From IMG/VR virus record IMGVR_UViG_3300044796_000222, positions 1 through 64,000 of that record: a stretch of DNA of 64,000 nucleotides, one strand, 5' to 3'. Shown here in pieces: positions 15,562 through 59,587 of the stretch. Numbering within the stretch: the first letter of the stretch is position 1; the number at the start of each line of letters is the position of its first letter. A program made the translations under genes and the position numbers. Below the pieces are notes generated by a model, which did not search any database, was not told the origin of the DNA, and saw nothing but the letters and a program-made list of their open reading frames with translations. The DNA is from a virus.

Positions 15562-15572
15562 GCGCACAAAAC

Positions 15573-15940
15573 CATGCCTATCCGGTTCCGTGACAATGAC
15601 ACACACACATCACTGTGCTACTGTAACTATAGGAGCTTGCCGAATGACCACCCCCGAGACCGCTGCCCTGCGTGCTCTGATACCGACATACAATCACGCC
15701 GACCCGCCATGCTGCTGTGGGCAACCCAAGAGTGACCACGATCTTGGAAAGATCGCCTTCGGAAATGACTGCCCTGGCTTTTGCGTCGAGGGTCCTCTTA
15801 CCCATGTGCTGGTTCCGATCGCGTTGCTCGCCGCAGTGATCGACCTCGCCGATGCCCAACAGGCATCACCGTCGACCTCATAACGGTTACAGTGCCACTG
15901 CGGTGTAGGTGTCGGATTGTCACGCAACCGGATAGGCATT
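15573..15940. mobile_element. 368-bp non-autonomous TIR cassette (cassette A)
   Basis: 55-bp imperfect TIRs (43/55; 23/24 over ATGCCTATCCGGTTSCGTGACAAT); perfect 8-bp flanking direct repeat CACAAAAC at 15565-15572 and 15941-15948. Confidence 0.85.
15644..15883 (+). CDS. 79-aa Cys-rich cargo protein of cassette A
   Basis: AGGAG RBS; fills the space between the TIRs; CCCG...H...CPGF motif. Confidence 0.6.
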   Translation: MTTPETAALRALIPTYNHADPPCCCGQPKSDHDLGKIAFGNDCPGFCVEGPLTHVLVPIALLAAVIDLADAQQASPSTS

Positions 15941-15951
15941 CACAAAACGGC

Positions 15952-15995
15952 AGAAGCCTCTCGCCCCGGCTGGGACGAGAGGTTCTTCTAATTTT
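15952..15995. terminator. Intrinsic terminator at the convergence of early and late transcription
   Basis: AGAAGCCTCTCG...CGAGAGGTTCTTCT hairpin, TTTT downstream, AAAA upstream. Confidence 0.7.
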
Positions 15996-16019
15996 GACGA
16001 TGTTAGAAGGAGGTTATAA

Positions 16020-16196
16020 TCACGCCTTCGGCATCGACGTAGTTTCTTCGCGCCGCCAGCACACGAGCCAGAAAACGATCCGCCCGCGTTGCTCCGCGGT
16101 CAGCGGAACGGGATGCTTCCGACGGCGCTCGTCGACGAGGCAGACGCGGCCAATGCGATCTTCGTTGCCTTCGATCGCCAGTTCGGTCATTGTCAT
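16020..16196 (-). CDS. Small hypothetical protein (58 aa)
   Basis: Hand translation MTMTELAIEGNEDRIG...; ATGA-coupled. Confidence 0.4.
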   Translation of the reverse strand: MTMTELAIEGNEDRIGRVCLVDERRRKHPVPLTAEQRGRIVFWLVCWRREETTSMPKA

Positions 16197-16348
16197 GGCC
16201 GGCGCGGAGGTTCGCTGCGGATTCGCTTCGGTGGGACCAGAGCGGCTCGCGCTAGCCTGAGCGCCGCCGAGACGGTCGCCCTACGCCGTTCCGGGTCAAG
16301 CTGGTCCAGGATCGCCTCTAGTTCCAAGCGCTCCTCTTGCTCGGTCAA
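16193..16348 (-). CDS. Small hypothetical protein (51 aa)
   Basis: TTG start overlapping the upstream stop; TEQEERLELEAILDQLDPERR... Confidence 0.4.
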   Translation of the reverse strand: MTEQEERLELEAILDQLDPERRRATVSAALRLARAALVPPKRIRSEPPRRP

Positions 16349-16590
16349 GGCTGACGATGCGCTCCACTGCGATTGGCGTCAGCGTCACGTCGCCCGCGCT
16401 CATAGGCCTCGTCCTGAACGTTACGCAGTTCCAGGCGCCTCACGCGTTCCACTAGGCCATCTTCACCATCGATTAGGTCGAGCGCCTTCGCGGACCGGAC
16501 GACGAAGCGGACTGCCCATGTAACGAAAGCCCCGGCGAGCGTGATGACTGCGGCGGCGGTGGCGATCATCGTCGACGCATCGGTGGTCAT
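16345..16590 (-). CDS. Single-TM membrane protein (holin/antiholin-like)
   Basis: N-terminal TM then charged coiled coil; downstream of the endolysin. Confidence 0.55.
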   Translation of the reverse strand: MTTDASTMIATAAAVITLAGAFVTWAVRFVVRSAKALDLIDGEDGLVERVRRLELRNVQDEAYERGRRDADANRSGAHRQP

Positions 16591-16790
16591 TGTCGTCGGC
16601 GCCTTCCCATGCGCTCGGCGAGTGTATGGTCTGCCCATGCGAGAATTGCGGTGAGCGTTCCGAGTCCAATGATGAGTCCAGCGACTACTGCCTCACGCGG
16701 GCCAATCGATCGGGTTGTGCAGTCGGCGACCCATCCAATCGATGCTACAGCCGCGACTCCAGAAGCGACGACTGGCCTTGCGATGCTCAC
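16587..16790 (-). CDS. Two-TM small protein, holin candidate
   Basis: Two hydrophobic segments and basic C-terminus RRRRQ. Confidence 0.55.
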   Translation of the reverse strand: MSIARPVVASGVAAVASIGWVADCTTRSIGPREAVVAGLIIGLGTLTAILAWADHTLAERMGRRRRQ

Positions 16791-17623
16791 GATTGGCTCC
16801 GTTCGGTTGTAGGCGCGTCATCGACGATTGGCGCGTCGACTGCGGCAAGTCTCTGCGATGACTTCGAAGTGGGCGTTCCTGGCAGCGTCGGCATCAGGCC
16901 GCTCGGATCGGTGTCAAGCTCTTCGTCGGCACGCAGAAGCGTCGCTGGCGTCTCAGGCTGCATCGCCTGTGCGGGCGGCATCTGGTGAAGCACGCCCGTC
17001 AGGAGCCACGCCTGGAACGCCGCTTCGTCGCCAAGGAACACGTCGCCATCGACGCGCGGGCTCGACGGAACGCCCGGTATCGGACCGCCAGCGCAATCGT
17101 CGCCACACCACTGCCAAGCAACCGCGTGAGTCCACGGCGCCGGGACATGCGGGCGAGTTACTCCGGTATGCGAAACCCATAGGTCGCATTCGGTGATCGA
17201 ATCGCCAGCCGGAATGCGCTGTTCCTCGATGAACGACGGGTACGAGTAGATGATGGGGCGCCGGCTCAACGCGCCTTCGATGAGTACACGAGCCGCCTTC
17301 ACGTCTGCGAGCGTGACGCCATGGAGTTCCCAATCGATGCTGGGCGGCAACTCGCTGTCGAGCAGTTCGCCGACAGTGTTGAGGAAGACCTGTACCTGCT
17401 GCGCGATCGAATGGCCGGGGACCAGCGCGAAGTAGAGGATCGTTGGCAATCCGAGCGCGTGGGCGCCAGCGCGATTCGCTTTGAACTGAGAATCGACGTC
17501 GAGGCCGCATGAGGCGCGGATGGAGACGAATCTGATCGCCGGGTCGACTTCGGACCAAACGGAAATTCCGTTGTTTGAGGAAATATCGATTCCCTGGATT
17601 CCGTCGATGGGCGCTTTTTTCAT
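16787..17623 (-). CDS. Endolysin, GH25 lysozyme
   Basis: GIDISSNNG; SIRASCG; IDWE; PIIYS; LWVS; WQW; VDGDVF. Start at MKKAPID. Confidence 0.9.
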   Translation of the reverse strand: MKKAPIDGIQGIDISSNNGISVWSEVDPAIRFVSIRASCGLDVDSQFKANRAGAHALGLPTILYFALVPGHSIAQQVQVFLNTVGELLDSELPPSIDWELHGVTLADVKAARVLIEGALSRRPIIYSYPSFIEEQRIPAGDSITECDLWVSHTGVTRPHVPAPWTHAVAWQWCGDDCAGGPIPGVPSSPRVDGDVFLGDEAAFQAWLLTGVLHQMPPAQAMQPETPATLLRADEELDTDPSGLMPTLPGTPTSKSSQRLAAVDAPIVDDAPTTERSQS

Positions 17624-17667
17624 GTCATCCCTGTTGCGCGTGCTGAATCGATGGCTATCACACCAGG

Positions 17668-18327
17668 ATGGGTCATGCAATCGATCGTGTCGGAAAGCGG
17701 TTCGGGCGCCTGGTGGTCGTGGAGAGGGGGCCGCAACTCCCATGGCGAACAACCACGCTCGTCCGATGGTGGTGCGTTTGCGACTGCGGTCAACGAACGC
17801 TTGTGAGATCCAGCAACCTGTTGAGCGGGCAGACCCGTTCGTGCGGATGTCTTACGAGGGAGATGTCTAGCCGCCGCAGCCGCAAACACGGCCTATCTGG
17901 CGCGCGCGATAGCAGTCGGATGTACTCCACATGGAGTGGCATGCGGCAGCGGTGCCGAGACAAGAACCACATCAACTATAACATATATGGCGGTCGCGGA
18001 ATACGAGTATGTGAAGCCTGGTCAGATTTCGAGGCGTTCGTAAAAGACGTAGGCCCAAAACCCAGCGCGCGGCATTCGCTCGATCGAATAAATACGGATG
18101 GCGACTACGAGCCTGGGAACGTCAGGTGGGCGACCGCCAAAGAGCAGTCAAGAAACATCAGGCGCCCGGTGCTGATTGAATGCAACGGCGTGTCGCTAAC
18201 GGCGCCTGAATGGGAGGAGCGCTGCGGTGTACGCTCAGTGTTGATTCGCGCCAGAATAAGGTTGGGGTGGACGGCGCAGGATGCGATGACGCGACCTCTA
18301 AGGATTACGAAGAGGAGCCGCCTTTAG
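17668..18327 (+). CDS. HNH-type homing endonuclease, antisense to the late operon
   Basis: WWCVCDCG...SCGC; WxxMRQRC; YGGRGIRVC; SLDRINxDGDYEPGNVRWAT. Confidence 0.85.
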   Translation: MGHAIDRVGKRFGRLVVVERGPQLPWRTTTLVRWWCVCDCGQRTLVRSSNLLSGQTRSCGCLTREMSSRRSRKHGLSGARDSSRMYSTWSGMRQRCRDKNHINYNIYGGRGIRVCEAWSDFEAFVKDVGPKPSARHSLDRINTDGDYEPGNVRWATAKEQSRNIRRPVLIECNGVSLTAPEWEERCGVRSVLIRARIRLGWTAQDAMTRPLRITKRSRL

Positions 18328-18360
18328 TCGTGGCCATCGCAATACGGAAGTCGGTGTTGA

Positions 18361-18591
18361 TCATGCCTTCCTCTTCACAAACTGGTGGGTCCGAATCGCC
18401 TCACTCACGGCAATCTGCACCAATTCCGCCTCACACGCCAGGCTCGCGCCGTCAAGCATCGGGTCGTCCAGAAGGATCGCGACCCTCTCGCGGCGCCAGT
18501 CCGCCACAACCGCGGGCCACTGACGAGCGGTCATCAGCGCGAAGTCTCGGTCCGCTTCTGCGCATGGCATAGAAAAGCCGCGCGTTCTCAC
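18361..18591 (-). CDS. Hypothetical protein
   Basis: Coupled ORF in the late operon. Confidence 0.45.
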   Translation of the reverse strand: MRTRGFSMPCAEADRDFALMTARQWPAVVADWRRERVAILLDDPMLDGASLACEAELVQIAVSEAIRTHQFVKRKA

Positions 18592-18716
18592 GGACTGCCT
18601 CGCACGGTCAGGCCGACCGCGAGGCCAATCCAGAAGACAGCCATGAGCACGATGATCGTGACCATGGCCAGTGGCGTTCCGACGTCATCGGGCGGAGGAT
18701 CGCTGGGGTAACTCAC
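18588..18716 (-). CDS. 42-aa single-TM protein
   Basis: Hand translation MSYPSDPPPDDVGTPLAMVTIIVLMAVFWIGLAVGLTVRGSP. Confidence 0.5.
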   Translation of the reverse strand: MSYPSDPPPDDVGTPLAMVTIIVLMAVFWIGLAVGLTVRGSP

Positions 18717-18874
18717 GTGAGCGTCGCAATGAGGTTTTGAGTGGAGACAGCCGTATCGGCGTTTGCTGGCTGCGTTCCGTCGTAGATTTCGATGAAGCCG
18801 GAGTTCAGCAACGGCGCCAACTGGTTCATCATCACGTTGCGGCTGTTGATTGCGAGTGACGGGTTTAGCGCCAT
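18713..18874 (-). pseudogene. Truncated virion structural protein (IYxGxQPAxAD family), 53 aa
   Basis: GAAGGAG RBS; MALNPSLAINSRNVMMNQLAPLLNSGFIEIYDGTQPANADTAVSTQNLIATLT-stop. Recalled relatives are about twice as long. Confidence 0.5.
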
Positions 18875-18898
18875 GTCAGCTCCTTCGGTGGGTTCGCG

Positions 18899-19234
18899 TC
18901 ATGGACAGTTCACGCCCGCCGTGCGGGCCTGCGCCTTCGTCGTCGCATTCGTCATGGCCGCAACGTCGACGGGAAGGATCTTGGCGAGGTTGCGCCGGTC
19001 GATTACGAGCGGACATTGCGGGTCTTGCCCCTCCGCGCAGCCGAGGAGCGCGAGCGTGGAACACGCCGCTGACGCGCTGGGCGACGCAGGCCCAGCGAAC
19101 GATGGCACGCCCGGCGCTGGCGTCGACGAGCATCGAGCGACGCAGCCTGCAAGCAGACCGATCGCGATGACGATGATCGAGCGCGTGAGCGGCGCGCATC
19201 GACAGCCCCACGATGAGCAGTCGGCGGCGGTCAC
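18899..19234 (-). CDS. Lipoprotein, possible o-spanin
   Basis: IIVIAIGLLAG-C lipobox; Pro/Cys-rich mature part; GTGA overlap. Confidence 0.55.
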   Translation of the reverse strand: MTAADCSSWGCRCAPLTRSIIVIAIGLLAGCVARCSSTPAPGVPSFAGPASPSASAACSTLALLGCAEGQDPQCPLVIDRRNLAKILPVDVAAMTNATTKAQARTAGVNCP

Positions 19235-20004
19235 GCTGCACCTTGGAGTGCTGCGAGCGCGGCCTTCATCGCCGCGCGATCGAAGCCATTGGGTGCCGTG
19301 TCGGCGGCGAAGAACATCGCGGAGAGGCATGCATACGCCTCGTCGCAGTAGCGCTCGACGAACGCCCACGTGACCGGGATGAGTTCGCCCCACGAAACGA
19401 CGTAGAGATAGTTCGCGTTGTACGCCACGGCGCAGACGCAGTGACCACCCCACGATCCGGGCGTGTCGTTGCCGCCCGCACCACCTTCGCCCCACGTTGT
19501 CTGCGACTGCACGGAGAGCGGGAGATCGAACCCGAGAATCAGGCCGCCAGTCTCGGCGACGGCGAGCTTCATCACGTCGCGCTCGCTCGGATGAATCGAC
19601 GCCCATCCCTCGATCTTAGTCACGCCGATGCCGATGTCTCGCCAGTATGCGAGGACGTCGGTGATCGCACTCCCCTGGTCTGTCTCCGGCTTGCTCGGGT
19701 CGTAGCCGGTGATCGCGGAATAGGCGGTGATGCAGTCGGCGGTCGTGACGACGCACTCGCCGCCTGCGTTCGCGGACCAGCACTCTGCGAGGTGAGCCGG
19801 TCCGACTTCAGCGCAGTCGCCGGCAGCGTTGTTGCCGAACATCGGCCACACCGCGACGGCCTTGCCGTAGTCGCATGCCTCGGGCGGTCCGGGGAGCGAC
19901 ACGAACGACGCTGCGCGGAGCGTGTCGAGGTGGATTTTCTTCGCGAGTTTGCCGAGTTTGCGCACGAGCGGCGGCGCGATCGCGGGCGACGGATCTGTGT
20001 CCAT
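19231..20004 (-). CDS. Papain-like (C1-type) cysteine peptidase
   Basis: GDC catalytic Cys; GGHCV His; VVSWG. Confidence 0.7.
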   Translation of the reverse strand: MDTDPSPAIAPPLVRKLGKLAKKIHLDTLRAASFVSLPGPPEACDYGKAVAVWPMFGNNAAGDCAEVGPAHLAECWSANAGGECVVTTADCITAYSAITGYDPSKPETDQGSAITDVLAYWRDIGIGVTKIEGWASIHPSERDVMKLAVAETGGLILGFDLPLSVQSQTTWGEGGAGGNDTPGSWGGHCVCAVAYNANYLYVVSWGELIPVTWAFVERYCDEAYACLSAMFFAADTAPNGFDRAAMKAALAALQGAA

Positions 20005-20549
20005 CACTTCGCGCTCGCCGACGCCGCCGGCGCCGCGTGAGAGGCCGCAGCAGCCTTGGCCTTCGCTTTGTCTCCAGCCATCGATTGCACCGTTGCGCCG
20101 TCGATCGCGGTACCGCCGCACTTCAGTGCGAGCTGCTCTGCGTCAGCCGCATTCAGCGTGACGAGATCGCCGATCGCTTCGGGCAGGTTGGCGTAAACGC
20201 ACGCCGCGAACTTCTCGGCGTCGGCGGTGAGGACTGGCTTGATCGACGACCAGAGCGAGCAGCCGGGGAGCGCGACGAGGGCGAGCATGGTCAGGCCCGC
20301 GAGCGGACCGATGAGCCGCGCCGGCCACTTGCCCTTGAAGAGCACGAGCAAGCCGTTGAGGATCTGCGGCACATTGATTCCGAGCCCGTCGACGATCGAC
20401 ACGAACGCCGCGAGTCGTGGCGACGTCGCGCGCAGCTTCGCGAGCCCGTCGGGCGTGTCCATCGCAGTCCACCATTTGGCGGCGAACGCGAGGCAGCCGA
20501 CGACGCAGAGTCCGATGAGTTGGTAGAGCCAGGTGGGAATCGTGGGCAT
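20004..20549 (-). CDS. Multi-TM membrane protein (holin/spanin-like)
   Basis: AGGAG RBS; several hydrophobic segments; internal LPG-C lipobox-like site. Confidence 0.55.
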   Translation of the reverse strand: MPTIPTWLYQLIGLCVVGCLAFAAKWWTAMDTPDGLAKLRATSPRLAAFVSIVDGLGINVPQILNGLLVLFKGKWPARLIGPLAGLTMLALVALPGCSLWSSIKPVLTADAEKFAACVYANLPEAIGDLVTLNAADAEQLALKCGGTAIDGATVQSMAGDKAKAKAAAASHAAPAASASAK

Positions 20550-20557
20550 GGGATCTC

Positions 20558-20824
20558 CTAGTAGAGCGTAAATGTCGGCCCCTGCGCGGAGCCACCGACA
20601 ACCGGCGGCGAGTAGTCAAGCGGGGTATATAAGACCACCCGTGACATGCCTGATGGGGACTGTTGCGTGATCGTCGTCGGGGGCAATGCAGCCATGATCA
20701 AAGGATGCGGAAGTACACGCGACGGCGCATCTTCCGCATCTTTGGTCGGAGTGCCCTTACATGCACAAAAGACCAAAGTGAGAGCGAGAATGGATCGAGT
20801 CAGTCGATGTGAGATCGCAGTCAT
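20558..20824 (-). CDS. Small putative lipoprotein
   Basis: ILALTLVFCA-C signal. Confidence 0.5.
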   Translation of the reverse strand: MTAISHRLTRSILALTLVFCACKGTPTKDAEDAPSRVLPHPLIMAALPPTTITQQSPSGMSRVVLYTPLDYSPPVVGGSAQGPTFTLY

Positions 20825-20831
20825 TTGACCC

Positions 20832-21926
20832 TTATTGTAACGTTAGATTGCGCAGGTACGGCACTGGCGGTGAACCGGAAAAGGCACTGTACATGAGTTG
20901 CACGATTTGCCCTGTTTGGCCGAACGGCACGTTAGGTGACAGGATCGTCGCAATTGGGGTGTAGTAGCCAGACCCAGGCCCTCCGTAGTCGAACAGAACT
21001 GTCGCCGTAGACCAGTGTGTGAGGTCGCTCGATGTCGCGTACCACCACGCCGTTGCGCCGCCGAATACCATAACCCATTTGCTCAGGCCGGCACTGTAGA
21101 CGACTGTTGGACAGCAAACGCCTTGCGCGGGCAGTGTGACAAGCGAGTCTTCCGCTCCGCCGACTCCCGGCGTGGACCATGTTCCGCCGCTGAGTTTGAG
21201 CCAACTGCCTGCAACCATGCCGCTCGTGATTGGCGATCGTGCGGCAAAGATGACGTGATTCGATGTCGCGCCATCGAGGAAGTCCATCGCGAAGACGTAG
21301 TTATACCCGCCTGTTTGCACGAGGCTCGGTAGCGCCGCACCGCAGATCGTGATCGTCGGTGGACTGACGGGTACGGCGGCGGAACTAGTGATCACCGCGC
21401 CCTGTCGAATCACTGTCCCTGCGTACCCGACGCCGCTCTGCGAATAGAGTACAATGCTTGTCACTGCGTCCACGCTCGGTGCCCATTGAGAATGGTTCTC
21501 ACCGTGCCCGATCCACAACAGCGAGCCTGGGTGCGCCGGGTCGGGGACACTCCCCGAGAATGCCGCATAAGCGGAATCCGGCGCCGTCGTGCCGCCTGCT
21601 GGACCAATGATGGCGATCGCGCTTCCACCGCTCTGCGAAATCGGCACGTAGCTCGTGCGATCCGCGTTGACGGTAAATCCGTACGTCGAACCGTCACCGG
21701 CGCCGCCAAAGGCGTACGTGGTGCCACCAGACGTATACTCGGAGTACTCGCCGTCGAAGAAGTTGGACAGGCCGAACGTCGACGGGAACATCGCAACGGG
21801 TGAGCCGGCGTCGACGAAGCCAGTGTGCTGGTGCGATGTCGCGACGAGAGCACGCGATACAGCATGCGCGCTCGCGCTGGTGAGTAGAGCGGCGCACGCC
21901 ATCAGCAAGACGGAAAAGCGTTTCAT
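20832..21926 (-). CDS. Secreted beta-propeller protein (glycoside-hydrolase-like fold)
   Basis: Sec signal MKRFSVLLMACAALLTSASAHA; WYATSSDLTHWS Asp-box-like motif; GHGENH. Confidence 0.65.
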   Translation of the reverse strand: MKRFSVLLMACAALLTSASAHAVSRALVATSHQHTGFVDAGSPVAMFPSTFGLSNFFDGEYSEYTSGGTTYAFGGAGDGSTYGFTVNADRTSYVPISQSGGSAIAIIGPAGGTTAPDSAYAAFSGSVPDPAHPGSLLWIGHGENHSQWAPSVDAVTSIVLYSQSGVGYAGTVIRQGAVITSSAAVPVSPPTITICGAALPSLVQTGGYNYVFAMDFLDGATSNHVIFAARSPITSGMVAGSWLKLSGGTWSTPGVGGAEDSLVTLPAQGVCCPTVVYSAGLSKWVMVFGGATAWWYATSSDLTHWSTATVLFDYGGPGSGYYTPIATILSPNVPFGQTGQIVQLMYSAFSGSPPVPYLRNLTLQ

Positions 21927-23641
21927 GTTCCCGCCCATGTCGCAGCAGACTGCACGAACGTATGAATCTGTGTTGCGTCCGTGCTGTTCAACGGGCCGAA
22001 GATAAACAGACCAGTATTGCCGTTCAGTCCATGCGAGCCGAGGCCCGCCTCATTGAATAGAGTAACCCCGCTGTTACCGTTTGTTCCTGGGTTGATGAAG
22101 CCACCACCCACCCCGTCTGCGTACACGACAGAGCTGCCCCCGCTGAATCCAAATAGCATCAGGTGTGGCGCTGCGATTATATCGACCGCAGTTGCGTCGA
22201 ACACCACAGAGCCAGCATACTCACCGAAAAACTTATCGGTAGAACCTGTCCACGCACCGGCCGTTTGCGTGCCCGCAGACCCGCCGAACAGCCAGTTGGC
22301 ACCCGCGGCGACGCCGCTCGTAAGTTGCCCGTACCAAGCGACAGACAACGGCTGCGACATCGTGGGCGTGGCCGCTTGCAAAGCGCTCCCTGTCGTCGCA
22401 ATCGCAGGTTTGCCGTTAACCCACGAGGAATTGATCGTTGGCGCCGTGAACGGGGACGTGACGGTGGCAACGAGCCCCGAGAAACAATCTGTCCATGCCC
22501 CTGTGCCGGCATTGAAACCAGAAGGCTCGTAGAAGACGTATTTCGCGTTGGTGCCGTTGAGGTAATAGGCTCCGTTTGCCAGCGGCACTGACGTGCCGCT
22601 CGTGGTGGTAACGGTTATCGAATAGAATGATCCCGCCGTGTTTGCAGGAGGTACAAACGTCACACTCGTGCCGGTCGAGCCGGTAGGTACCGCAGTGGCA
22701 GACCCCACAGTGACGAGCGATGCGCCAGTCATGCCCGTGCCGTTTAGCGTCCATGCCACGCCACCACCTGCCGCGGGCGCAAGAATCGGCAGTGCGGGCG
22801 CGGTGATCGTCGGCGCCGCAGTCGCATACGTGTATGCGCCCGCGAGAATGAGGGGGAGCCCCGTACCTGTGCCCGTGAAAACGACATCGCATGTGCCCGC
22901 AGCATGGGCCGGCGTCGTGAGCGACACACCCCAATAGGTCGCGCTCACGCCTGTAGCCACTGTGCCGCAGACAGTCGCGCCAGTCGCGCCCGCGATTTGC
23001 TCAGCGAGCACCGTCGATACAGACGTCCCACCCGAGAGCGGTCCACTCGTCGGCGTGATGGCGCTTACGAAAGCGCCGCTGTTCGGCGTGCCGACCGTCG
23101 ACGCGACGGGGAGCACACGCGTTTCGATTGCAACGCCAGCAGGACGGGTGATCGTCGCAGTGAGCACGTGCCCAGTCACGACGTAGGTAGCTGTTGTCGC
23201 GGCCAGCGCACTCGCGAGAGAGCTGCTCGTCGTCGCGTTCTGCGCGAGCGTGATCGACGTGCCGTTGTCCTGCCCACTCGCCGAGATCACGATGTACCCG
23301 GTCACACCAAGGCCACCGAGTTCACGCACTTCGATTTGGTCGGAGCGCGTGATCGTCTGCGCGCTGGTGAGCGTGACCGAGATCGCAGAGAGTGTCGTCG
23401 CCGCGTCGGTCGAGATGTCCTGCGTGGTCGACGGCGGCGACATCGTGAGCGTCGCAGCGGTGTCCGGCGACGTCTGCGTCAGCGCGTTGTTGCCGAGCGC
23501 GCCGGTGAAGGTCGAGCCGCCTCCGCCGCCGCCGCCAGAAAACGAGCCGCCAACGCGGTGTTGCTCCGACGGCGGCGCGCGATGGCATGCGGCGCCAAGC
23601 GTCAGCAGCATCGATAGGATGGCGCGAATTTTGTTCGTCAT
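21923..23641 (-). CDS. Lipoprotein-signal protein with IPT/TIG domains and a lectin-like C-terminus
   Basis: MTNKIRAILSMLLTLGAA-C lipobox; ITPTSGPLSGGT...TTPAHAAG and a second IPT-like repeat. Confidence 0.7.
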   Translation of the reverse strand: MTNKIRAILSMLLTLGAACHRAPPSEQHRVGGSFSGGGGGGGSTFTGALGNNALTQTSPDTAATLTMSPPSTTQDISTDAATTLSAISVTLTSAQTITRSDQIEVRELGGLGVTGYIVISASGQDNGTSITLAQNATTSSSLASALAATTATYVVTGHVLTATITRPAGVAIETRVLPVASTVGTPNSGAFVSAITPTSGPLSGGTSVSTVLAEQIAGATGATVCGTVATGVSATYWGVSLTTPAHAAGTCDVVFTGTGTGLPLILAGAYTYATAAPTITAPALPILAPAAGGGVAWTLNGTGMTGASLVTVGSATAVPTGSTGTSVTFVPPANTAGSFYSITVTTTSGTSVPLANGAYYLNGTNAKYVFYEPSGFNAGTGAWTDCFSGLVATVTSPFTAPTINSSWVNGKPAIATTGSALQAATPTMSQPLSVAWYGQLTSGVAAGANWLFGGSAGTQTAGAWTGSTDKFFGEYAGSVVFDATAVDIIAAPHLMLFGFSGGSSVVYADGVGGGFINPGTNGNSGVTLFNEAGLGSHGLNGNTGLFIFGPLNSTDATQIHTFVQSAATWAGT

Positions 23642-23681
23642 GGTGTGTTTACCGAGCGGTGCATCGTTGGAGCCTATTTGG

Positions 23682-26890: not shown

Positions 26891-26898
26891 GGCCTACC

Positions 26899-52060: not shown

Positions 52061-52593
52061 CAGTGCGTAGTGGCCGCGTCGATGTCCGCGAGAACGCTGT
52101 CCTGCGTGATCGTCTCGGACTCGTCGGCGTCAATCTCTTGCGCGCGGGTCATCGCGGTCATGATCCGCTGCATCAACTGCGGCTCGTTGGCGAACTCACT
52201 GCGGAGTGCCACGACAAGCCCGTTGAGCGTGGCCTTCAGGACGGCGCGCGTGTTCGGGTGGAACTCTTGCGGCATCTGCCGTTCGATGACCCAGCACGCC
52301 AACTTCGTGTCGAGCCCCGCCGGGTTGTCAACGTCGAGGCCCGCTTCGATCACATCGAGCGCCTTGTCAACGAGAATTGACTCGGCCCTCTGCGCCCTCT
52401 CGAAGAACTGCGCGAACGGGCTATCGCCTTGGTCGGCGAGTCGGCGCCACGTCACCCATCGAGCGGGCGTGACGCCGAGTGACCGAGCGGCGCGAGCAAG
52501 CGGGACGCCCTTGGATGACTTCTCGATGATCTGGCGCGCAAGCTCCTGCGTCAGACCGCATCGAGTCACCCACTGAGCATCGCCGCCGGCCAT
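52060..52593 (-). CDS. Terminase small subunit (putative)
   Basis: N-terminal HTH; WVIERQMPQEF motif; TGATG-coupled to terL. Confidence 0.7.
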   Translation of the reverse strand: MAGGDAQWVTRCGLTQELARQIIEKSSKGVPLARAARSLGVTPARWVTWRRLADQGDSPFAQFFERAQRAESILVDKALDVIEAGLDVDNPAGLDTKLACWVIERQMPQEFHPNTRAVLKATLNGLVVALRSEFANEPQLMQRIMTAMTRAQEIDADESETITQDSVLADIDAATTH

Positions 52594-52596
52594 CGC

Positions 52597-53679
52597 TTAC
52601 CAGTTCGCGAGAACGTACGAGAGCGTCGAGGTTTCCGTCGCCGACGAGTCAGCGAAGACGAGCGAGCCCGTGCCGGCGCCAGTCGTCACCGTGCAAGACA
52701 GGTTGCCCATCGTTCCAACCGCCGCGAGACGCCCGTAGCCAAGGCCGTCGCCAGTGCGAACGAAGAGGTTCGCGACGGTAACCGCGCCGCTCGACAGCGC
52801 CGCCGTGGTGCCCTTCTCGACACGCGGGTACCAAGCCGTCGACGTCGTGTCGATCACCACCGCGCCGGTCGTGGTCATCTTCCATTCGGACGACGAGTAG
52901 CGCGTGCCTTCGCTGACCTGGACGAGCATGCCGTTCAGGGCCGTGGCGCCAGTAGCATAGCCGGCAGGACGCGTGAGAGGCGCTGTGCCGGTCGTCACTG
53001 TGCCGACGACGTAGAGGCCGTTCTGAGACGCCGTCGTCTGCATCGGCAGAAGGACGATGTCGCCAGCCACGTTCGTAACGTCGTCGTTTCCGGCGACCGT
53101 AAAGGAACTCAGGGACGCGACGTTCGCGGGGACGATGTTGCGAGCCTGGTTCGTGAGGGAGACGGCTGCGGGGCTCGCGCCAGTGGCGGCTGGGATTGAG
53201 AACTCGACCCAGACGCCGAACGTCGTGTCGACGCTTTTGATCTTGCCGGCGATGGGGCGCGTGCCGCCGGCACTTGTGAGAGCCACGGTTTGGTCATCAA
53301 CCACGTAGCAGTAGGCGCCGATGTTAGCGCTTGTAATCGCGTCGGCCCCGGCACTGTTGGCCATGGGGAAGGCAGAGGCGCCCCCTACGACGGGGCACTG
53401 GATTGCGCCTGCGCCACCCGCCGTGTTGTCGGCAGTGATTGCGGCGCAACCGATGATGGTTAGCGTGTTGAGCGCGGTTGCCCGGTTGAGGTTGCCGCTC
53501 GCGTCCAAGCCAACCATTCCGGTGGCGATGATTTTTGTGCTCGCAGCGACGGGGAAGCCCTTCACCTGAGACGCCGATCCGCTAACCACGACCGTGGTTG
53601 GGTTGACGTACTGTGCAGCCTGAAACGGCGGCCAAGCGTAGAAGGTCGTTGAACTACGGGGCGATACGATTGCGCTCAT
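52597..53679 (-). CDS. Putative head fibre/decoration protein
   Basis: PVAASTKIxxxxMV cement-like N-terminal domain; VLLxxQTTASQNGLYVV fibre motif. Confidence 0.65.
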   Translation of the reverse strand: MSAIVSPRSSTTFYAWPPFQAAQYVNPTTVVVSGSASQVKGFPVAASTKIIATGMVGLDASGNLNRATALNTLTIIGCAAITADNTAGGAGAIQCPVVGGASAFPMANSAGADAITSANIGAYCYVVDDQTVALTSAGGTRPIAGKIKSVDTTFGVWVEFSIPAATGASPAAVSLTNQARNIVPANVASLSSFTVAGNDDVTNVAGDIVLLPMQTTASQNGLYVVGTVTTGTAPLTRPAGYATGATALNGMLVQVSEGTRYSSSEWKMTTTGAVVIDTTSTAWYPRVEKGTTAALSSGAVTVANLFVRTGDGLGYGRLAAVGTMGNLSCTVTTGAGTGSLVFADSSATETSTLSYVLANW

Positions 53680-53789
53680 GGTCGTGCCTCTCGTTCATGG
53701 AGAACGCGGTCTGGTGAGACGTGGTGCGGATAGACCCGCGAGATGTTGGCGAGCGCCTGCGGTCCTGGACGCGCGGAGCTGCGAGCGTA

Positions 53790-53911
53790 CCTATCTTGAA
53801 CGTTCTACCTCGCGAGGCAATCAAGATGTCTCAAGAGAAATCCATTGAAATTCTTCTGATTCAAGTTTTCTCACTTGCGATCTACGCTGTGGCCGTCTAA
53901 AACCGCGCTTC
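53790..53911. promoter_or_regulatory. AT-rich divergent control region
   Basis: Between the leftward late operon and the rightward block; ATCTTGA/TCAAGAT inverted pair; TTGCGA-N17-TAAAAC. Confidence 0.55.
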
Positions 53912-54157
53912 ATGGAGCGACTGCCAGATCCGAAGGGGCCATACGTCGAACGCGTGAAGGAGAAGTTGCGAAAGGGGGAGCGACCTGACGTTGTGCGGTG
54001 GAAGGGCGTCGCCGCAGCGCTGAACATGTCGGAAGACGCACTGCTGCGGATGCGCCGGTCCGGTCGCGCGAAAGAGATTCCAGTATTCCGCCAGCGCAAC
54101 GGGGTGCTTGTCTCCTTCGTGGAGATCATCCTCGTTTGGGCCTCAGAGGAGCCATGA
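53912..54157 (+). CDS. HTH DNA-binding protein (excisionase/MerR-like)
   Basis: WKGVAAALNMSEDALLRM...IPVFR. Confidence 0.6.
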   Translation: MERLPDPKGPYVERVKEKLRKGERPDVVRWKGVAAALNMSEDALLRMRRSGRAKEIPVFRQRNGVLVSFVEIILVWASEEP

Positions 54158-54440
54158 TCTACTTCATCCAGGCTGGGCACGTGCCGCTCAGAAGGCTCAG
54201 CCGTCGTTCGCTGAGAGCGACGTGGAGGGCGCCCGTGCCGCCGAGCGCCTGAAGGCCGCTGGCGAGCGCGACAAGTTGCGCGCCAAGCACTACGAAGAAA
54301 CACGGAATCACTCGAACGTCTTGTGGGAAGAACGAGAAGTGCTGCGCGAAGCGAAGGCTGAGATCGAGCGCCTCCGCGCTTCCCTCGCGCTCTTGACGCC
54401 GCCGAAGTCGTTCTTACCATCCGAGCATGACCGTCGCTGA
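54154..54440 (+). pseudogene. Possible deletion junction: GIY-YIG-like start fused out of frame to a headless coiled-coil ORF
   Basis: GAGGAG-ATG MIYFIQAG, then the coding-like sequence continues in another frame. Confidence 0.35.
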
Positions 54441-54792
54441 ATCCAACGTCGTCTGGTGCTACTCCGATCAGAAGAACCCCGACTCGTGGCCGAACCACGC
54501 CGACACGCGCGAGCAGGCTATCGAGATGGGTCGAGAGACCTACGGGCACGACGTCACGTTCTGGATCGCGATGGGGCATCGGCAGGGCGCTTCCGGTATC
54601 GCGCTCGACGCTGACGGCTACATCGAAAACATGCGCGACCACGCCGCCGAGGAGTGCGAGGACGGCGCGGAGTTCGTCGAAGTGAAGCCGGGCGGCAAGG
54701 AAGCGCTCGACGCTCTACTCGCGACGTGGCTCGCTCAATACGTCGAGGTGACCTACTGGATCGTCGACGGCGAGCAGGTGCAAATTGACTGA
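54427..54792 (+). CDS. Hypothetical protein
   Basis: Strong codon bias. Confidence 0.7.
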   Translation: MTVAESNVVWCYSDQKNPDSWPNHADTREQAIEMGRETYGHDVTFWIAMGHRQGASGIALDADGYIENMRDHAAEECEDGAEFVEVKPGGKEALDALLATWLAQYVEVTYWIVDGEQVQID

Positions 54793-55147
54793 CCGCCGCC
54801 TCACCATCGTCGTGGACGCCGACCAGAATCCTCCCATCGATCCGATCGCATGCGCCCTCATCGCGCTCTGGCGATCGAATGGCGCCGTGACCGCCGACGG
54901 TGCCGAGTGGTTGCTGAAGTCCAGCACTGGCATGCGCCATGAGTGGCTCGCTCGTGATGCCGAGCATGTTGCCCCGCTGGTTGCGTGGATCGAAACGGTC
55001 GTCCGCGCGAAAATCGAGGCGGAGAACGCTGCCCGTGTCGCCTCCGACAAGGCCGCACTTCGCGCCGTATTCCACGAACATCGCATGGCGTCACCGGCTG
55101 TCGGCGGCATGCTCGGTACCGCTTCCGAAGTGCGAGGGCCGCGATGA
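54785..55147 (+). CDS. Hypothetical protein
   Basis: Coupled ORF. Confidence 0.55.
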   Translation: MTDRRLTIVVDADQNPPIDPIACALIALWRSNGAVTADGAEWLLKSSTGMRHEWLARDAEHVAPLVAWIETVVRAKIEAENAARVASDKAALRAVFHEHRMASPAVGGMLGTASEVRGPR

Positions 55148-56157
55148 GGGTCGGCCTGAGCCCAGAACTCGATGAGGCCGCATTGGCCTACTGGCGAGCC
55201 AACAGGCGGCCAGGACGCGTTACCGTCGCACCGAAACTCGACCTAAGAAGTCAGATGATGGCGATTGGGCCAACATTGGCCAAGGGCGTGTCTGGAGATG
55301 ATCTGGAAACGTTCGTTGCCGGTGTATGGTCTGTCGACAAAATTAAAGACCCTATCGTCGGGCCGATGCTCTCGATGCCTGGCTTCAGGTCGTTCGCTGG
55401 ATTCGCTGCGAGGTGGGCAATGTGTGGATTCCCAGCAGTGTCCGTTGGCCACAGGCTGACTGCGTCGCTGATGTCTACAACCGTGTCACCTGACATCATC
55501 GGCGAGATCGTGTTCCCATGGCCAGCGTTCTCCGTGAACATCCCTCATGGGCTGATCTCGACCATCAGCCCGCAAAGCGGGTTGGCTGAAAGCATCAGCA
55601 ACGCCTGCATTCACAGGTACGTCGACGCTGCCGGCGATGTTTGGTTCGACCTGATCTGTGCCGCCGACACGTGTGAACTTCAGAGCGTGAACGTAAGAGC
55701 GGACGTGTTTTTTCGAGATGATTCGCGAGAGTCGCTGGCCGACGGAGAGTTCTGTGTTGGAGTGGACGAATCAGACGAGCGCGCGCTACTGCTCGTGCGT
55801 AGACTGCTTGTCGGTGTGTGTATCGAAATGAGCGACCGTGCGAATTCGAAGCCTCAAAACAAGAAGGCGCGCATGGGATGCCATGGCGTCATCGATAGAA
55901 ATGCGCCGGGCATGTCGCTCTGGCTTCTGACGCGAGACGTGAAGATCGATGCTCGTGAGGCATGCCGAGAATTCGTGAGCCATGGAGGAAGGTCGCCGGC
56001 CGTTCAATCGATGGTGCGTGGACACCACAAGCGTCAAGCGCATGGTCGGAACGGTTCACTTCGGAAGTGGATTCACGTTGAACCTTACTGGCGCGGACCA
56101 GAGGATGCGCCGATCGCGGTGCGCTCTCACCGACTGGACGACGGTGCTGCGTCATGA
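55144..56157 (+). CDS. Conserved phage protein with VRGHxxxQ...WIxxxxRG C-terminal motif
   Basis: VRGHHKRQAHG...KWIHVEPYWRGPEDAP. Confidence 0.7.
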   Translation: MRVGLSPELDEAALAYWRANRRPGRVTVAPKLDLRSQMMAIGPTLAKGVSGDDLETFVAGVWSVDKIKDPIVGPMLSMPGFRSFAGFAARWAMCGFPAVSVGHRLTASLMSTTVSPDIIGEIVFPWPAFSVNIPHGLISTISPQSGLAESISNACIHRYVDAAGDVWFDLICAADTCELQSVNVRADVFFRDDSRESLADGEFCVGVDESDERALLLVRRLLVGVCIEMSDRANSKPQNKKARMGCHGVIDRNAPGMSLWLLTRDVKIDAREACREFVSHGGRSPAVQSMVRGHHKRQAHGRNGSLRKWIHVEPYWRGPEDAPIAVRSHRLDDGAAS

Positions 56158-56468
56158 CCGCCAACCCCACCAGAGGCGCCTGGCTAGTCCGCCGCGCCAC
56201 CCTAGACGAAGAGATCGCGCGCCTGACGAAGCGCCTCGCGGAGCCGTCGGATCGCAGTAGCCCGCACAATCGCCTCCTAGACTTCGAATCGCGCCGACGT
56301 GCCCAAGAGCGCCTCACAGTCGCGCTGGCTGAACGCCTCGCCCACGGCAGCGATCCCGGCCCCAACGCCGTCGAGTTCGGCTTCGACTGGCTCGCTGGGC
56401 ACACGCGAAGGATCGCGAAAGAGCGTGATGTCGCGCTGGCGAAGTTGAAACGAATGGGGGCGGCCTGA
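56154..56468 (+). CDS. Hypothetical protein
   Basis: ATGA overlap. Confidence 0.55.
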   Translation: MTANPTRGAWLVRRATLDEEIARLTKRLAEPSDRSSPHNRLLDFESRRRAQERLTVALAERLAHGSDPGPNAVEFGFDWLAGHTRRIAKERDVALAKLKRMGAA

Positions 56469-56899
56469 TGTTCATTTGCGACGACTGCCGAAAGAAGAAC
56501 TGCGCCAACGAACGCGAATTTATGACGTCGTGGGGCACGTGCGAGTTCTGCAAGGCGCAGGCGTCGTGCTCTGACATCCATCACTCGCGGCTGCGTCTGA
56601 GGCTACCCGCGATCGACCCGATCATGCGCGAGTTGCTGGCCATCGTGGCGACGATGGAGGACGCGTGCGCCGACAGCCACCTGAACGCCAACACGCTCGC
56701 AGCCGGCGCGCGACGCGTTGATACGCACCGCGATCGCTACGTCGGCGACATCGCGGCACTGGAGTCCGTAGCCGCGCATATCGAAACGATCGTTCGTGAG
56801 AAGGTCTTTCGCGAAATGCTTGCCCGCAAACTGAAAGAACTGGCGCCAGCGTTCGAGGCGGACTTGGCTGAAGCGAAGAAGGGTGGAAGCGATGTCTGA
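56468..56899 (+). CDS. Hypothetical protein with N-terminal zinc finger
   Basis: CDDC...CEFC. Confidence 0.65.
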   Translation: MFICDDCRKKNCANEREFMTSWGTCEFCKAQASCSDIHHSRLRLRLPAIDPIMRELLAIVATMEDACADSHLNANTLAAGARRVDTHRDRYVGDIAALESVAAHIETIVREKVFREMLARKLKELAPAFEADLAEAKKGGSDV

Positions 56900-57257
56900 C
56901 ACAACGATCAAGATCGAACCATCGACAGCGGACTTGCGCGAAGCCGTCTCCGAGTGGGCGACCAAGCGCTTCGGCGCGACGTTCGGCCAGGACAGTGGCG
57001 GCGCTTGCCGAGCACTTCCCAAGTCGGCTCGCGGCTTCTTCGACGCCATCAAGAAACTCGTTTCGCACCTTCCGACTATGACGCTCGACGTGACGCACAC
57101 GCTGCCCGCTCGTTGGGTCGCCGTCGCTTACGTCCATCAAGGTCGCGTCAAGCGCTACCAACTGAGGCATGAACGGAACCGCAAGGTCCGCACGCGAGTC
57201 CATGACGTCACGTTTCGGCGAGACGGGCAGTCGATCGTCGGCGACGGGTGGGCGTGA
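56892..57257 (+). CDS. Hypothetical protein
   Basis: Coupled ORF. Confidence 0.55.
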   Translation: MSDTTIKIEPSTADLREAVSEWATKRFGATFGQDSGGACRALPKSARGFFDAIKKLVSHLPTMTLDVTHTLPARWVAVAYVHQGRVKRYQLRHERNRKVRTRVHDVTFRRDGQSIVGDGWA

Positions 57258-57508
57258 TGACTTGCGCCACCATATGTCGAGCATGCCACCAAATGACGCC
57301 GGCCGTTTCGCCGGTCATCCTGGCATTCGCGCCCGTCTACACCAAAACGTGCGCCAAGTGCCAGGGCATCAACGCGACGAATCGGATGCCGGAAGGCTCA
57401 GTCGTCGATTGGGGATACGAGGCAGAGGCTAAGCCGACGCCCGGAACCGTCAATCACACGACCGTCGACGGCAAAGGCGCTGTCGCGAGGCTGCGGAGGA
57501 AGCGATGA
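57257..57508 (+). CDS. Hypothetical zinc-finger protein
   Basis: CRAC...CAKC. Confidence 0.55.
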   Translation: MTCATICRACHQMTPAVSPVILAFAPVYTKTCAKCQGINATNRMPEGSVVDWGYEAEAKPTPGTVNHTTVDGKGAVARLRRKR

Positions 57509-57726
57509 CCGACATCGAGAAACTCATCGAACTCATCATGGCGCGCACAACCACCGTCGCGTGGGTCGGTTTCGCGCGAGACTTCAACTACTTCGTCATC
57601 CTCTACGGGCGAGCCGTCAGCGACGACGACGTTGCCGTAGCGAAGCGCTGCGTCTGCGACGTCTATCCGAAAGCCATCAACCTGGACGTGATTCGCGCTC
57701 GCGTGAGGTTGGAGGACCTGTCATGA
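57505..57726 (+). CDS. Hypothetical protein
   Basis: GGAGG RBS. Confidence 0.6.
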   Translation: MTDIEKLIELIMARTTTVAWVGFARDFNYFVILYGRAVSDDDVAVAKRCVCDVYPKAINLDVIRARVRLEDLS

Positions 57727-57932
57727 CCGACGAAGAAATCAAGACGCACAACGACGCAGTAGAAGCCGAATACGCAACGATGCTCACAACGCTGCCTGCC
57801 GAGGAGCGGCGCTTTGCGTTCGATCTTGCGCGCGAACTCTTACTCAAGAGCGAATACGCCTCGCCGGTTGACTCGTTGCGCAAAGCGACGTGGTTCCACT
57901 CCGAGGCGAAAAGGCGCGGGCTACTGATATGA
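57723..57932 (+). CDS. Hypothetical protein
   Basis: GGAGG RBS; ATGA overlap. Confidence 0.6.
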   Translation: MTDEEIKTHNDAVEAEYATMLTTLPAEERRFAFDLARELLLKSEYASPVDSLRKATWFHSEAKRRGLLI

Positions 57933-58039
57933 TCGCCGTCGTATGCGGCTCCCGCGACTCCCGAGATCGCGACGGCGTCTTCGCTGTGCTCGATCGCATC
58001 CACGCCGAGACGCCGATTACGCCTTGCCTATCCGGTTGA
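57929..58039 (+). pseudogene. SLOG (DUF2493/YspA-like) gene truncated by cassette B
   Basis: MIAVVCGSRDSRDRDGVFAVLDRIHAETPIT runs into the TIR and stops. Confidence 0.65.
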
Positions 58040-58049
58040 CTCCCTCCCC

Positions 58050-58079
58050 TTGACACCTTCCCTACTTCTGGTGTACGCA
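58050..58079 (+). promoter_or_regulatory. tnpB promoter (probably leaderless)
   Basis: TTGACA-N18-TACGCA; ATG at 58086, no SD. Confidence 0.45.
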
Positions 58080-58085
58080 TTCAAC

Positions 58086-59447
58086 ATGTCCGCTGAGAAG
58101 ACCCACCAGCGAATTGTTCGGGAATTAGACCCAAACAACGAGGTGCTGACGTCTTTTCGCAAATACGCGGGAACCAAAAGGCTTGTCTACAACTTGTACT
58201 TGGAGGCCGCCCAGACGCTCTTTCACTCGTGCCAAGACAAGGTACGCTTCCTCAAGAAGAACGACTTCAAGCGGGAGTTCACTGCGCGTAGGCACTCAGA
58301 CTTCCCTTGGATGGACGAAATCCCATCCAATCTCATCGAACTTGCTATCGATGACGCCGATCGTGCCTATCAAAACTTCTACGCCGCTCGCAAGAAGGCT
58401 AGGAAGGTGGGACTCCCTCGTCGAAAGAAGAAAGGCAACGCACGAGACTCCTTCCGCTTCCGAAACGAGCTAGTCAAACTTCTAGACCGTCGGCATATAC
58501 ACGTCTCCAAGATCGGCCGGGTCAGACTCAAAGAGCCCCTTCGCTTCATCAAAGACCAACGGGTCGTAAGCCTCACAGTCTATCGCGAAGCCGATCGCTG
58601 GTTCGGATCGTTTCTGGTCGAAGAACCCTTGGCCACACCTGTTCCGCCTACTAATCCGATCGTGGGAGTAGACCTCGGGGTCCTCACGTTCGCGACCGTT
58701 TCGGACGGTTTCAGCTACCAAAGAGTCGCTCACACCAACGCTCTCAAGTCCTCATTGAAGCGTCTCCAACGTCTTAGTCGTCAACAGTCACGAAAGGAAA
58801 GGGGCTCAAACAGCAAGAAGAAAGCCACCATGAAGCTCGCCCGACAGCATAGGCGAGTGAAGAATATCCGAGAGACGCAGATCCACAAGCTCACCACGAA
58901 GCTGGCGAAAACCAAGTCAGTCGTCGTGATCGAGGACCTCAACGTCTCTGGGATGGTGAAGAACAAGAACCTAGCGCGATCCGTCATGGATCAAGGGTTC
59001 GGGATGGTCCGACGCCAGTTGGAGTACAAGACCAAGAAGTTCGGGTCTCGCCTCCTCGTGGTCGATCGGTTTTTCCCGTCCTCGAAGCTGTGCTCTGTGT
59101 GCGGGTTCAAGTGCGAGAAGATGCCTCTTAGTGTGAGGCGTTGGAGTTGCGTCAAGTGCGGCGCAACCCACGATAGGGACGAGAACGCCTCGGAGAACCT
59201 GAGGCAAGAAGGCCAACGCATGTTGGCTAACGATTTAGTACCCCAAATGCTGGGGGAATTTACGCCTGAGGAGATCCCTCTGGGGGTGGACGGCACGATG
59301 ATGGGGTGCACTGGAAGCACCCCAGAGGCGTCTACTGCCCATGGGTCGTTGAACCAGGAAGCGGGCTCAACGTGTGGGAAGTCCTCACGTACGGTAAGTC
59401 CCGTCAATGCCGGAGGCTCCCCACTCGTGGGGGAGCCTACCGGATAG
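58086..59447 (+). CDS. tnpB: RNA-guided endonuclease TnpB (IS200/IS605/IS607 type)
   Basis: RuvC motifs GVDLG, IEDL, DRDENA intact; CSVC/CVKC zinc finger; FPSSKLC. Confidence 0.95.
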   Translation: MSAEKTHQRIVRELDPNNEVLTSFRKYAGTKRLVYNLYLEAAQTLFHSCQDKVRFLKKNDFKREFTARRHSDFPWMDEIPSNLIELAIDDADRAYQNFYAARKKARKVGLPRRKKKGNARDSFRFRNELVKLLDRRHIHVSKIGRVRLKEPLRFIKDQRVVSLTVYREADRWFGSFLVEEPLATPVPPTNPIVGVDLGVLTFATVSDGFSYQRVAHTNALKSSLKRLQRLSRQQSRKERGSNSKKKATMKLARQHRRVKNIRETQIHKLTTKLAKTKSVVVIEDLNVSGMVKNKNLARSVMDQGFGMVRRQLEYKTKKFGSRLLVVDRFFPSSKLCSVCGFKCEKMPLSVRRWSCVKCGATHDRDENASENLRQEGQRMLANDLVPQMLGEFTPEEIPLGVDGTMMGCTGSTPEASTAHGSLNQEAGSTCGKSSRTVSPVNAGGSPLVGEPTG

Positions 59448-59450
59448 GCA
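59230..59450 (+). ncRNA. Putative omegaRNA overlapping the tnpB 3' end (limits approximate)
   Basis: The tail after RuvC-III reads GEFTPEE...SLNQEA, typical of omegaRNA-overlapping tnpB ends; hairpins at about 59370-59390 and 59410-59443. Confidence 0.55.
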
Positions 59451-59587
59451 TGGAAGACGCGTGCCGCTACATCGTCGCCTGTCGTCGAGACGGCGCCGCC
59501 CAGCAGGCCGAGTGCGTCCACGGCCGCTCCGACGGCGCGCTCGCTCTCGTCGCGAAGGCGCTGGCGGCGCTGGGTATTAGGGCTTGA
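59450..59587 (+). pseudogene. 3' remnant of a gene right of cassette B
   Basis: EDACRYIVACRRDG...LGIRA-stop; the only ATG comes from the TIR. Confidence 0.4.

Follow-up and report, generated by a model that had tools for sequence, protein, structure and literature searches.

TnpB-type nucleases are known from IS607 elements (e.g. ISXfa1), where TnpB and its guide RNA (reRNA or omegaRNA) accompany the serine recombinase TnpA, and from transposons with symmetrical ends. The survey of Altae-Tran et al. (2023, PNAS, PMC10691335) describes six DDE-associated TnpB branches (DDE-1 to DDE-6) with inverted terminal repeats, as well as solo TnpBs lying between nearly identical ends and taken as mobilised in trans, so that the principle of a DDE-ended solo TnpB is already known. 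Fanzor1 and Fanzor2* are found in eukaryotic transposons with terminal inverted repeats and target-site duplications (Bao and Jurka, 2013, PMC3627910; Yoon et al., 2023, NAR, PMC10711439), and Fanzor guide-RNA scaffolds incorporate inverted repeats and duplications, with the guide coming from flanking DNA (PMC10711439). Miniature transposable elements with inverted repeats (MITEs) and passenger-carrying forms of IS1595, a family that makes 8-bp duplications (PMC8101967), are also already known kinds. Here we describe two transposase-less elements, A (15573–15940) and B (58023–59452), in the first 64 kb (64,000 nt, hereafter the window) of the 93,013-bp IMG/VR virus record IMGVR_UViG_3300044796_000222, with an estimated completeness of 87%. 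The record represents a myovirus-like phage from peat metagenomes that carries tail sheath, baseplate, TerL and DnaB genes. B encodes a TnpB of the IS607-associated clade, A is a miniature, and both have the same termini; they are probably non-autonomous members of a single DDE-type cut-and-paste family, likely IS1595 with ISSod11-like ends, whose transposase would reside outside the phage.

The two elements are delimited by the 12-mer TGCCTATCCGGT, which occurs four times, at 15575 (+), 15927 (−), 58025 (+) and 59439 (−), in two inward-facing pairs, as the initial annotation of this DNA had observed. This is far beyond chance, the mean number of matches in shuffled sequence being 0.22 and none of 100 shuffles reaching four. 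Extending the search from the window to the whole record, as had been suggested, brought no further copy at up to one mismatch, and copies with two or three mismatches were at chance level across the record (51 seen versus approximately 73 expected). One such site, with two mismatches at 64779, was set aside, its surroundings not being inverted-repeat-like. With two outer bases added, the four ends begin CATGCC, AATGCC, CTTGCC and CATGCC, giving a 14-bp form (C/A)(A/T)TGCCTATCCGGT, and at all four of them the flanking octamers begin directly outside the 14 bp, i.e. 2 bp beyond the 12-mer. The 8-bp flanking repeats reported earlier were found again, perfect at A and matching at six of eight positions at B. 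Beyond their termini A and B have nothing in common, and their contents are unrelated, as first noted: TnpB (Pfam, phrog_506) in B and a 79-aa open reading frame (ORF) without family in A. Both have a lower G+C content (57% in A; 55% in B) than the surrounding phage (about 62%).

No transposase was detected. In the whole record there was no match over cut-off to DDE_Tnp_IS1595, Zn_ribbon_IS1595, DDE_Tnp_1, Resolvase or Y1_Tnp, the sole DDE_Tnp_1 match being 12-bit noise inside the helicase gene, which extends to these five families and the full 93,013 bp what had been noted for the window. Since the record lacks IS1595, IS4-type, serine and Y1 transposases, movement of A and B would have to occur in trans. 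An IS1595 transposase was likewise absent from 29 other viral records.

Element A measures 368 bp and is flanked by identical copies (8/8) of the octamer CACAAAAC, read directly at 15565–15572 and 15941–15948. A gap-free alignment of its ends reveals a left inverted repeat at 15573–15627 (+ strand; outer 14 bp CATGCCTATCCGGT) and a right one at 15886–15940 (− strand; outer 14 bp AATGCCTATCCGGT), so that the terminal repeat of A is present as first described, its length having been understated (about 55 bp and imperfect, rather than 14 bp). A MazG-like pyrophosphatase gene (15076–15561, + strand, from the ORF list; phrog_3301, 2.1e-31) stops 11 nt before A, and A is followed after 4 nt by a GC-rich hairpin and then TTCTTCTAATTTT (15952–15989, + strand; RNAfold, −21.7 kcal/mol), probably the terminator of the MazG gene and left unflagged by a strict terminator scan. 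A therefore splits the gene from the hairpin. When A and one octamer are removed in silico, the stop codon is followed by 11 nt and the hairpin, an ordinary gene-then-terminator order; together with the perfect 8-bp repeat, this restored order is what a simple insertion by a staggered-cut transposase leaves behind. The only ORF within A (P0002, 15644–15883, + strand), encoding 79 residues rich in Cys, had no Pfam or PHROG family and returned nothing from a protein atlas (best score 0.75). Its G+C content by codon position (0.64/0.51/0.64) displays a weaker third-position bias than that of phage genes (about 0.6/0.45/0.74), and with so weak a coding signal it may be considered a possible gene, of uncertain status, rather than an established cargo. 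By structure A is MITE-like, being short, with inverted repeats, a perfect duplication, no transposase and an orphan ORF only; MITEs typically occur as multiple copies at different sites, and A is single-copy in the record. A 23-mer from its repeat had no match in viral contigs.

Element B is 1430 bp long. Its left inverted repeat (CTTGCCTATCCGGTTG, 58023–58038, + strand, followed by ACTCCC and TTGACA) and its right one (CATGCCTATCCGGTAG on the minus strand, 59437–59452), assigned by the 12-mer match and end alignment, agree at 14 of 16 positions. The putative duplications GATTACGC (58015–58022) and GAAGACGC (59453–59460) match at six of eight positions, at least six matches having a probability of about 0.004 by chance. 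Between the repeats lies a tnpB ORF (P0001, 58086–59447, + strand) of 453 aa, with residues 6–383 forming the TnpB fold according to Pfam, PHROG and alignment. Matches to OrfB_IS605 (PF01385, 3.9e-24) and to the Cas12f1-like TNB domain (PF07282, 6.2e-20) exceeded the cut-offs, phrog_506 was matched at 7.5e-98, and the invariant alignment columns comprise the RuvC residues D196/E283/D363–365 and the zinc-finger cysteines C336/C339/C355/C358. P0001 is an intact TnpB of the IS607-associated clade, sharing 41% identity with copies on Xylella plasmids and 37% with the annotated IS607 TnpB of Rhodothermus. In several of the metagenome relatives whose upstream flank was read (L124, L168, L105, L107 and L120), a serine-recombinase tnpA gene ends just upstream of tnpB.

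The 3′ part of this ORF merits separate description. The last 70 codons (59235–59447) form an open frame across the guide-RNA region, and the stop codon TAG (59445–59447) falls inside the right repeat, within GGATAGGCA. This tail has a flat, apparently non-coding G+C profile by codon position (0.59/0.59/0.65), and a protein search with the tail alone returned only the query. The closest TnpBs (P0003, 55% identity; P0004, 53%, from a metagenome-assembled genome of Polyangiales; and P0006) all keep the tail, and since it stays open in these relatives too, gene callers probably over-extend such proteins. P0003, P0004 and P0006 end in Gly-stop in the same alignment column as P0001, which fits a GGATAG in a like end and suggests, from the protein tails only, that their genes may terminate in the same kind of repeat. 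Another solo tnpB (L109, 2462–3744 of a 14.5-kb metagenome contig) has a right end AATGCTTATCTGGA with a matching left arm, both similar to the ends of B, and no serine recombinase upstream; its duplication is not clear. The right end of L124 has a look-alike of the 12-mer that was rejected, as it lies inside a neighbouring major facilitator superfamily gene and such matches occur at chance frequency, and GCCTATCC in L250 was set aside for want of a partner. Separately, a metagenome tnpB with 44% identity to P0001 (L113, 59–1399) was found between perfect 16-bp inverted repeats (AATTCCCGGAGACCTT) of an end type that differs from that of A and B, with flanking octamers matching at five of eight positions.

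Overlapping the tail, we recognized the conserved core of an IS607-type guide-RNA scaffold (59340–59413, + strand, from GGGTCGTTGAACCAGGAAGC to GGTAAGTCCCGTCAATGCCGG) by comparing B by eye, without aligning formally, with 19 relatives whose sequences were set out from the common GAAGCAGGAAGC motif onwards. The relatives have TCGTTGAAGCAGGAAGC in common, and the conserved GAAxCAGGAAGC core is also present in B. Most of these 19 scaffolds stop at GGAACGG or something close to it, with no inverted repeat, and beyond that point the sequences diverge. In B the scaffold core ends in GGTAAGTCCCGTCAATGCCGG and is followed by 39 extra nucleotides made up of a hairpin and the repeat. The predicted hairpin (59410–59443, + strand; 34 nt, 13 pairs and one bulge in RNAfold) includes the ACCGG of the right repeat in its 3′ strand and is an extension that the IS607 relatives do not have. 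The fold z-score for the scaffold is −4.5; Rfam contained no matching family, yielding only a 15.6-bit noise match. A 4-bp CTGG/CCAG pairing seen by eye in L109 was considered too weak to count as covariation in support of the hairpin. The initial annotation had placed a promoter-like sequence at the left end of each element, but consensus scans for promoters and terminators flagged nothing in region A or B.

Set beside the DDE-associated TnpBs, B is alike in having its tnpB between symmetrical inverted repeats without a cis transposase, mobilisation in trans being the likely mode in both cases, and in having the 3′ end of tnpB close to the transposon end (within 250 bp in the published examples; inside the repeat in B). 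It differs in that the main text of that paper (PMC10691335) names only IS630 as a partner and has no mention of IS1595, whereas the ends of B are IS1595-like; no link of TnpB with IS1595 ends was found in the literature searched. B differs further from the examples in that text in that its TnpB belongs to the IS607-associated clade and that a TnpB-less miniature with the same termini accompanies it in the same phage. With IS607 elements B shares the TnpB clade and the scaffold core, but it has no tnpA, its ends are symmetrical and inverted, an apparent 8-bp duplication flanks it and its 3′ end runs 39 nt past the scaffold end. Thus, of the IS607 hallmarks (TnpA, asymmetric ends, no duplication) only the TnpB clade is represented. 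IS200/IS605 elements have a Y1 TnpA and subterminal hairpins, lack both inverted repeats and a duplication, and insert 3′ of a fixed target-adjacent motif (TAM). B does not resemble them: there is no Y1_Tnp match, inverted repeats and duplications are present, and no common motif was seen among the left flanks of A, B and L109. The parallel with Fanzor lies in an IS607-derived TnpB-type nuclease apparently captured by a cut-and-paste transposon, here non-autonomous and in a virus, and in a repeat, possibly with the duplication, standing where the 3′ part of the scaffold should be. Unlike Fanzor, B belongs to a prokaryotic system, the phage of a microbe from peat, its TnpB is ordinary in size and domains, and the end of its guide RNA is predicted from sequence.

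For the transposon family, DDE_Tnp_IS1595 genes from archaeal genomes were used as queries to collect 80 phage-borne loci. Boundaries set by the 8-bp duplication (at least 7/8) gave 19 candidates, of which L184 and L248 were doubtful and excluded, leaving 17 validated elements. The ends at the 80 loci are related to those of A and B, not identical, and the 8-bp duplication of A (perfect) and B (6/8) is also found in all 17 elements, 13 of which have TAT at positions 7–9. All four ends of A and B read nnTGCCTATCC, with G at position 4 and TATCCGG at 7–13, followed in the left end of B by TTGAC. The same register is shared by several of the fetched elements. L212 (1691–3567) and L215 have perfect 16-bp ends (GGCGATTATCCGGCAC; duplication TCATCATC), a 322-aa transposase and, as an example of the passenger genes tolerated in IS1595, a 275-aa ORF of unknown function; TTGAC follows their left repeat as part of a promoter-like TTGAC...TATAAT stretch. 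L265 (end GGCGACTATCCCCTGA; duplication AAGATTTC) carries GGCGACTATCCCC, again with G at 4, TATCC at 7–11 and the register of A and B, and the end of L183 is AATGGGGTATCCACTT (duplication TATGTTAA). The 8-bp duplication, the G at 4, the TAT(C) at 7–10 and a TTGAC-like −35 box inside the left end are thus held in common with ISSod11-like members of the family. The ends of the ISSod11 group, which we take to be nnnGcnTATC with direct repeats of 8 bp (ISfinder), are fitted by CATGCCTATC. A and B differ from IS1595 in having no DDE_Tnp_IS1595 gene, either within them or in the record, and in first bases other than GGN. The likeness of the ends argues for IS1595 and is real support, not proof.

The ends could have come from a different DDE family, perhaps one not yet described, whose insertions likewise produce 8-bp duplications, the likeness to IS1595 then being superficial. 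We regard this as unlikely, while acknowledging that the outer three bases (CAT, AAT or CTT) are not the GGN of the validated IS1595 elements, that the nearest real end, that of L212, matches at only about 8 of 16 positions, that no IS1595 transposase with the ends of A and B was found, and that 8-bp duplications are made by other DDE families too. Against it stand the TATCC(GG) register relative to the 8-bp duplication, as in L212, L215 and L265, and the TTGAC-like bases that follow, as in the left ends of these elements. The end motifs of IS6, IS66, ISL3 and IS256 also differ from those of A and B. The initial annotation had instead assigned the ends to IS231 of the IS4 family, with an IS4-type transposase acting on mobile insertion cassettes. 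The concept is close to that of MIC231 of Bacillus cereus, a group of transposase-less cassettes with IS231 ends and unrelated passengers that are moved in trans, and ends starting CATGCC or AATGCC do recall IS231. In IS231, however, the duplication is 10–12 bp long. The family, the duplication length (8 bp here) and the end sequence all differ, the likeness does not go past CATGCC, no IS4-type DDE match (DDE_Tnp_1) exceeded the cut-off and the IS1595 register fits better, so that we consider this assignment extremely improbable.

Two further explanations dispense with a DDE transposase. B might be an ordinary IS607/IS605-type tnpB element, with the 12-mer arising from its RNA or target biology (scaffold, TAM or target) and A as a by-product, e.g. 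similar to a palindrome-associated transposable element (PATE); the IS607-associated clade of the TnpB fits this, as does the 3′ hairpin in the guide-RNA region, in which the right 12-mer is paired over its inner half. Yet IS607 elements have neither terminal inverted repeats nor duplications (PMC6188088), the fetched IS607 relatives do not contain the 12-mer, serine and Y1 transposases are absent from the record, and A, which has only its termini in common with B, bears a perfect 8-bp duplication of a kind made by neither serine nor Y1 transposition. This origin therefore appears very improbable. Slightly less probable still is that a recombinase or regulator of phage or host uses the four sites for crossover or binding (invertible segments or operators), and that they are not transposon ends. 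The inverted pairs do bracket discrete segments and A is intergenic, where an invertible switch could act, but inversion leaves the direct 8-bp repeats outside the ends unexplained, no Resolvase-family recombinase is encoded in the record, only one orientation was seen in two independent assemblies, and the segments are lower in G+C than the phage, one of them holding a classic mobile-element gene.

An assembly artefact, which had been named as a possible refutation, is unlikely because the contigs of two peat runs from separate studies, a DNA library and an RNA library, are identical letter for letter over 14800–16700, with A present and no joints; these unchanged contigs show no mobility. 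No close relatives of the phage were found by megablast or in the phage, viral-contig and genome collections, its TerL shares at most 40–43% identity with the best relatives, and no syntenic relatives were found for the genes adjoining the two elements.

Besides the points already conceded on the end sequences, several findings weigh against a pair of IS1595-type cassettes moved in trans. No transposase gene flanked by exactly the ends of A and B was found, including at the 80 fetched IS1595 loci, nor did these loci contain a transposase-bearing element with ends nearly identical to those of B; as the record is 87% complete, a transposase could also lie in its missing part. The ISSod11 consensus used above is one that we presume, a text search of the literature for the motif as a printed IS1595 end consensus having given nothing relevant. 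Empty-site patterns (flanks joined with a gap of 0–30 nt) were absent from viral contigs for both A and B, and from metagenome contigs for A, and neither a third copy of the A/B type nor a third cargo was present in the viral or metagenome collections. The contigs of the two runs displayed no polymorphism at A, rare variants and expression being beyond the reach of contig data, and P0002 had no relatives among 5.8 billion proteins. Accordingly, none of the support that the initial annotation had hoped for (more repeat pairs, a DDE transposase with the same ends, empty sites) turned up in the collections searched. Of its proposed family of gene-delivery cassettes, the non-autonomous nature, the single end type and the lack of a phage transposase are supported, but the claim that the family loads cargo into the phage goes beyond the evidence of two elements, an orphan ORF with weak coding signal and neither an empty site nor a third cargo.

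The insertion site of B is a further difficulty, in addition to its imperfect octamers. The left end of B cuts a SLOG/YAcAr gene (DprA-like, DUF2493) after its N-terminal 32 codons (57929–58024, + strand), recognized by PF10686 (profile positions 4–30, 7.5e-05) and by tblastn with three phage SLOG proteins. This remnant is the sole match to the domain in the 93-kb record, which contains no other part of it, and the right flank of B had no SLOG profile match in any of its three frames. Because the remaining part is missing, excising B according to the 8-bp rule leaves the gene unrestored, the resulting frame having no SLOG likeness, and the site is therefore not that of a clean simple insertion. 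An in-frame join of 58024 to 59453 was set aside, its 75-aa product showing no more than a faint HG..GA likeness. Possible histories are an insertion into an already truncated SLOG gene, or a deletion beside the right end after insertion, in which case the 6/8 duplication would be partly luck. The gene just to the right of B (59642–60766) has relatives with 51–52% identity in two viral contigs, where it follows a terminase-like gene and not SLOG, so that this neighbourhood is not conserved.

On the proposal that A and B belong to one IS1595-type family, both elements would be moved by the same enzyme, a transposase supplied by the host or by a co-resident element. It would bind to the 14-bp termini that A and B have in common, cut the unit out and reinsert it at a site opened by a staggered cut of 8 bp, each insertion leaving an 8-bp duplication. 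A would then be a MITE-like miniature that landed between the MazG-like gene and its terminator hairpin. B would be a solo TnpB cassette, derived from an IS607-lineage tnpB that was enclosed with its guide-RNA module by borrowed inverted repeats, keeping tnpB and scaffold and losing the serine recombinase and the IS607 ends. The new 3′ hairpin would link the original end of the scaffold with the right repeat, so that a transcript could read across that repeat, and perhaps across the duplication as well, and take its guide from what flanks them. The start of the guide therefore probably falls outside the repeat or the duplication, in flanking DNA, as in Fanzor. A fixed guide within the cassette seems unlikely, since such a guide would be a self-paired hairpin.

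The locus goes beyond the DDE-ended solo TnpBs already described in three respects: the phage also carries a miniature that lacks TnpB and has identical termini, there is a clear switch of vehicle from IS607 to a DDE element, and the guide-RNA scaffold is tied to the repeat by a hairpin. In practical terms its weight is modest, since both cassettes are small and present in single copy and neither was seen to move. The junction between scaffold and inverted repeat bears on how a guide could remain programmable despite a fixed transposon end. A bolder and rather doubtful extension is that peat phages share a pool of transposase-less IS1595-type cassettes with single exchangeable passengers, and that in one lineage of IS607-derived TnpB the guide-RNA scaffold has become fused to the right repeat, so that the nuclease would read the DNA immediately outside the insertion and help a DDE cut-and-paste element to persist or home, as a prokaryotic counterpart of Fanzor that originated within viruses. 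If the proposal made here is correct, one phage would contain a bare miniature and a cassette for an RNA-guided nuclease, both moved by a single borrowed transposase, and TnpB would have passed, in prokaryotic viruses, from the serine-recombinase vehicle of IS607 to a DDE cut-and-paste vehicle, the same step as is thought to have given rise to the eukaryotic Fanzors.

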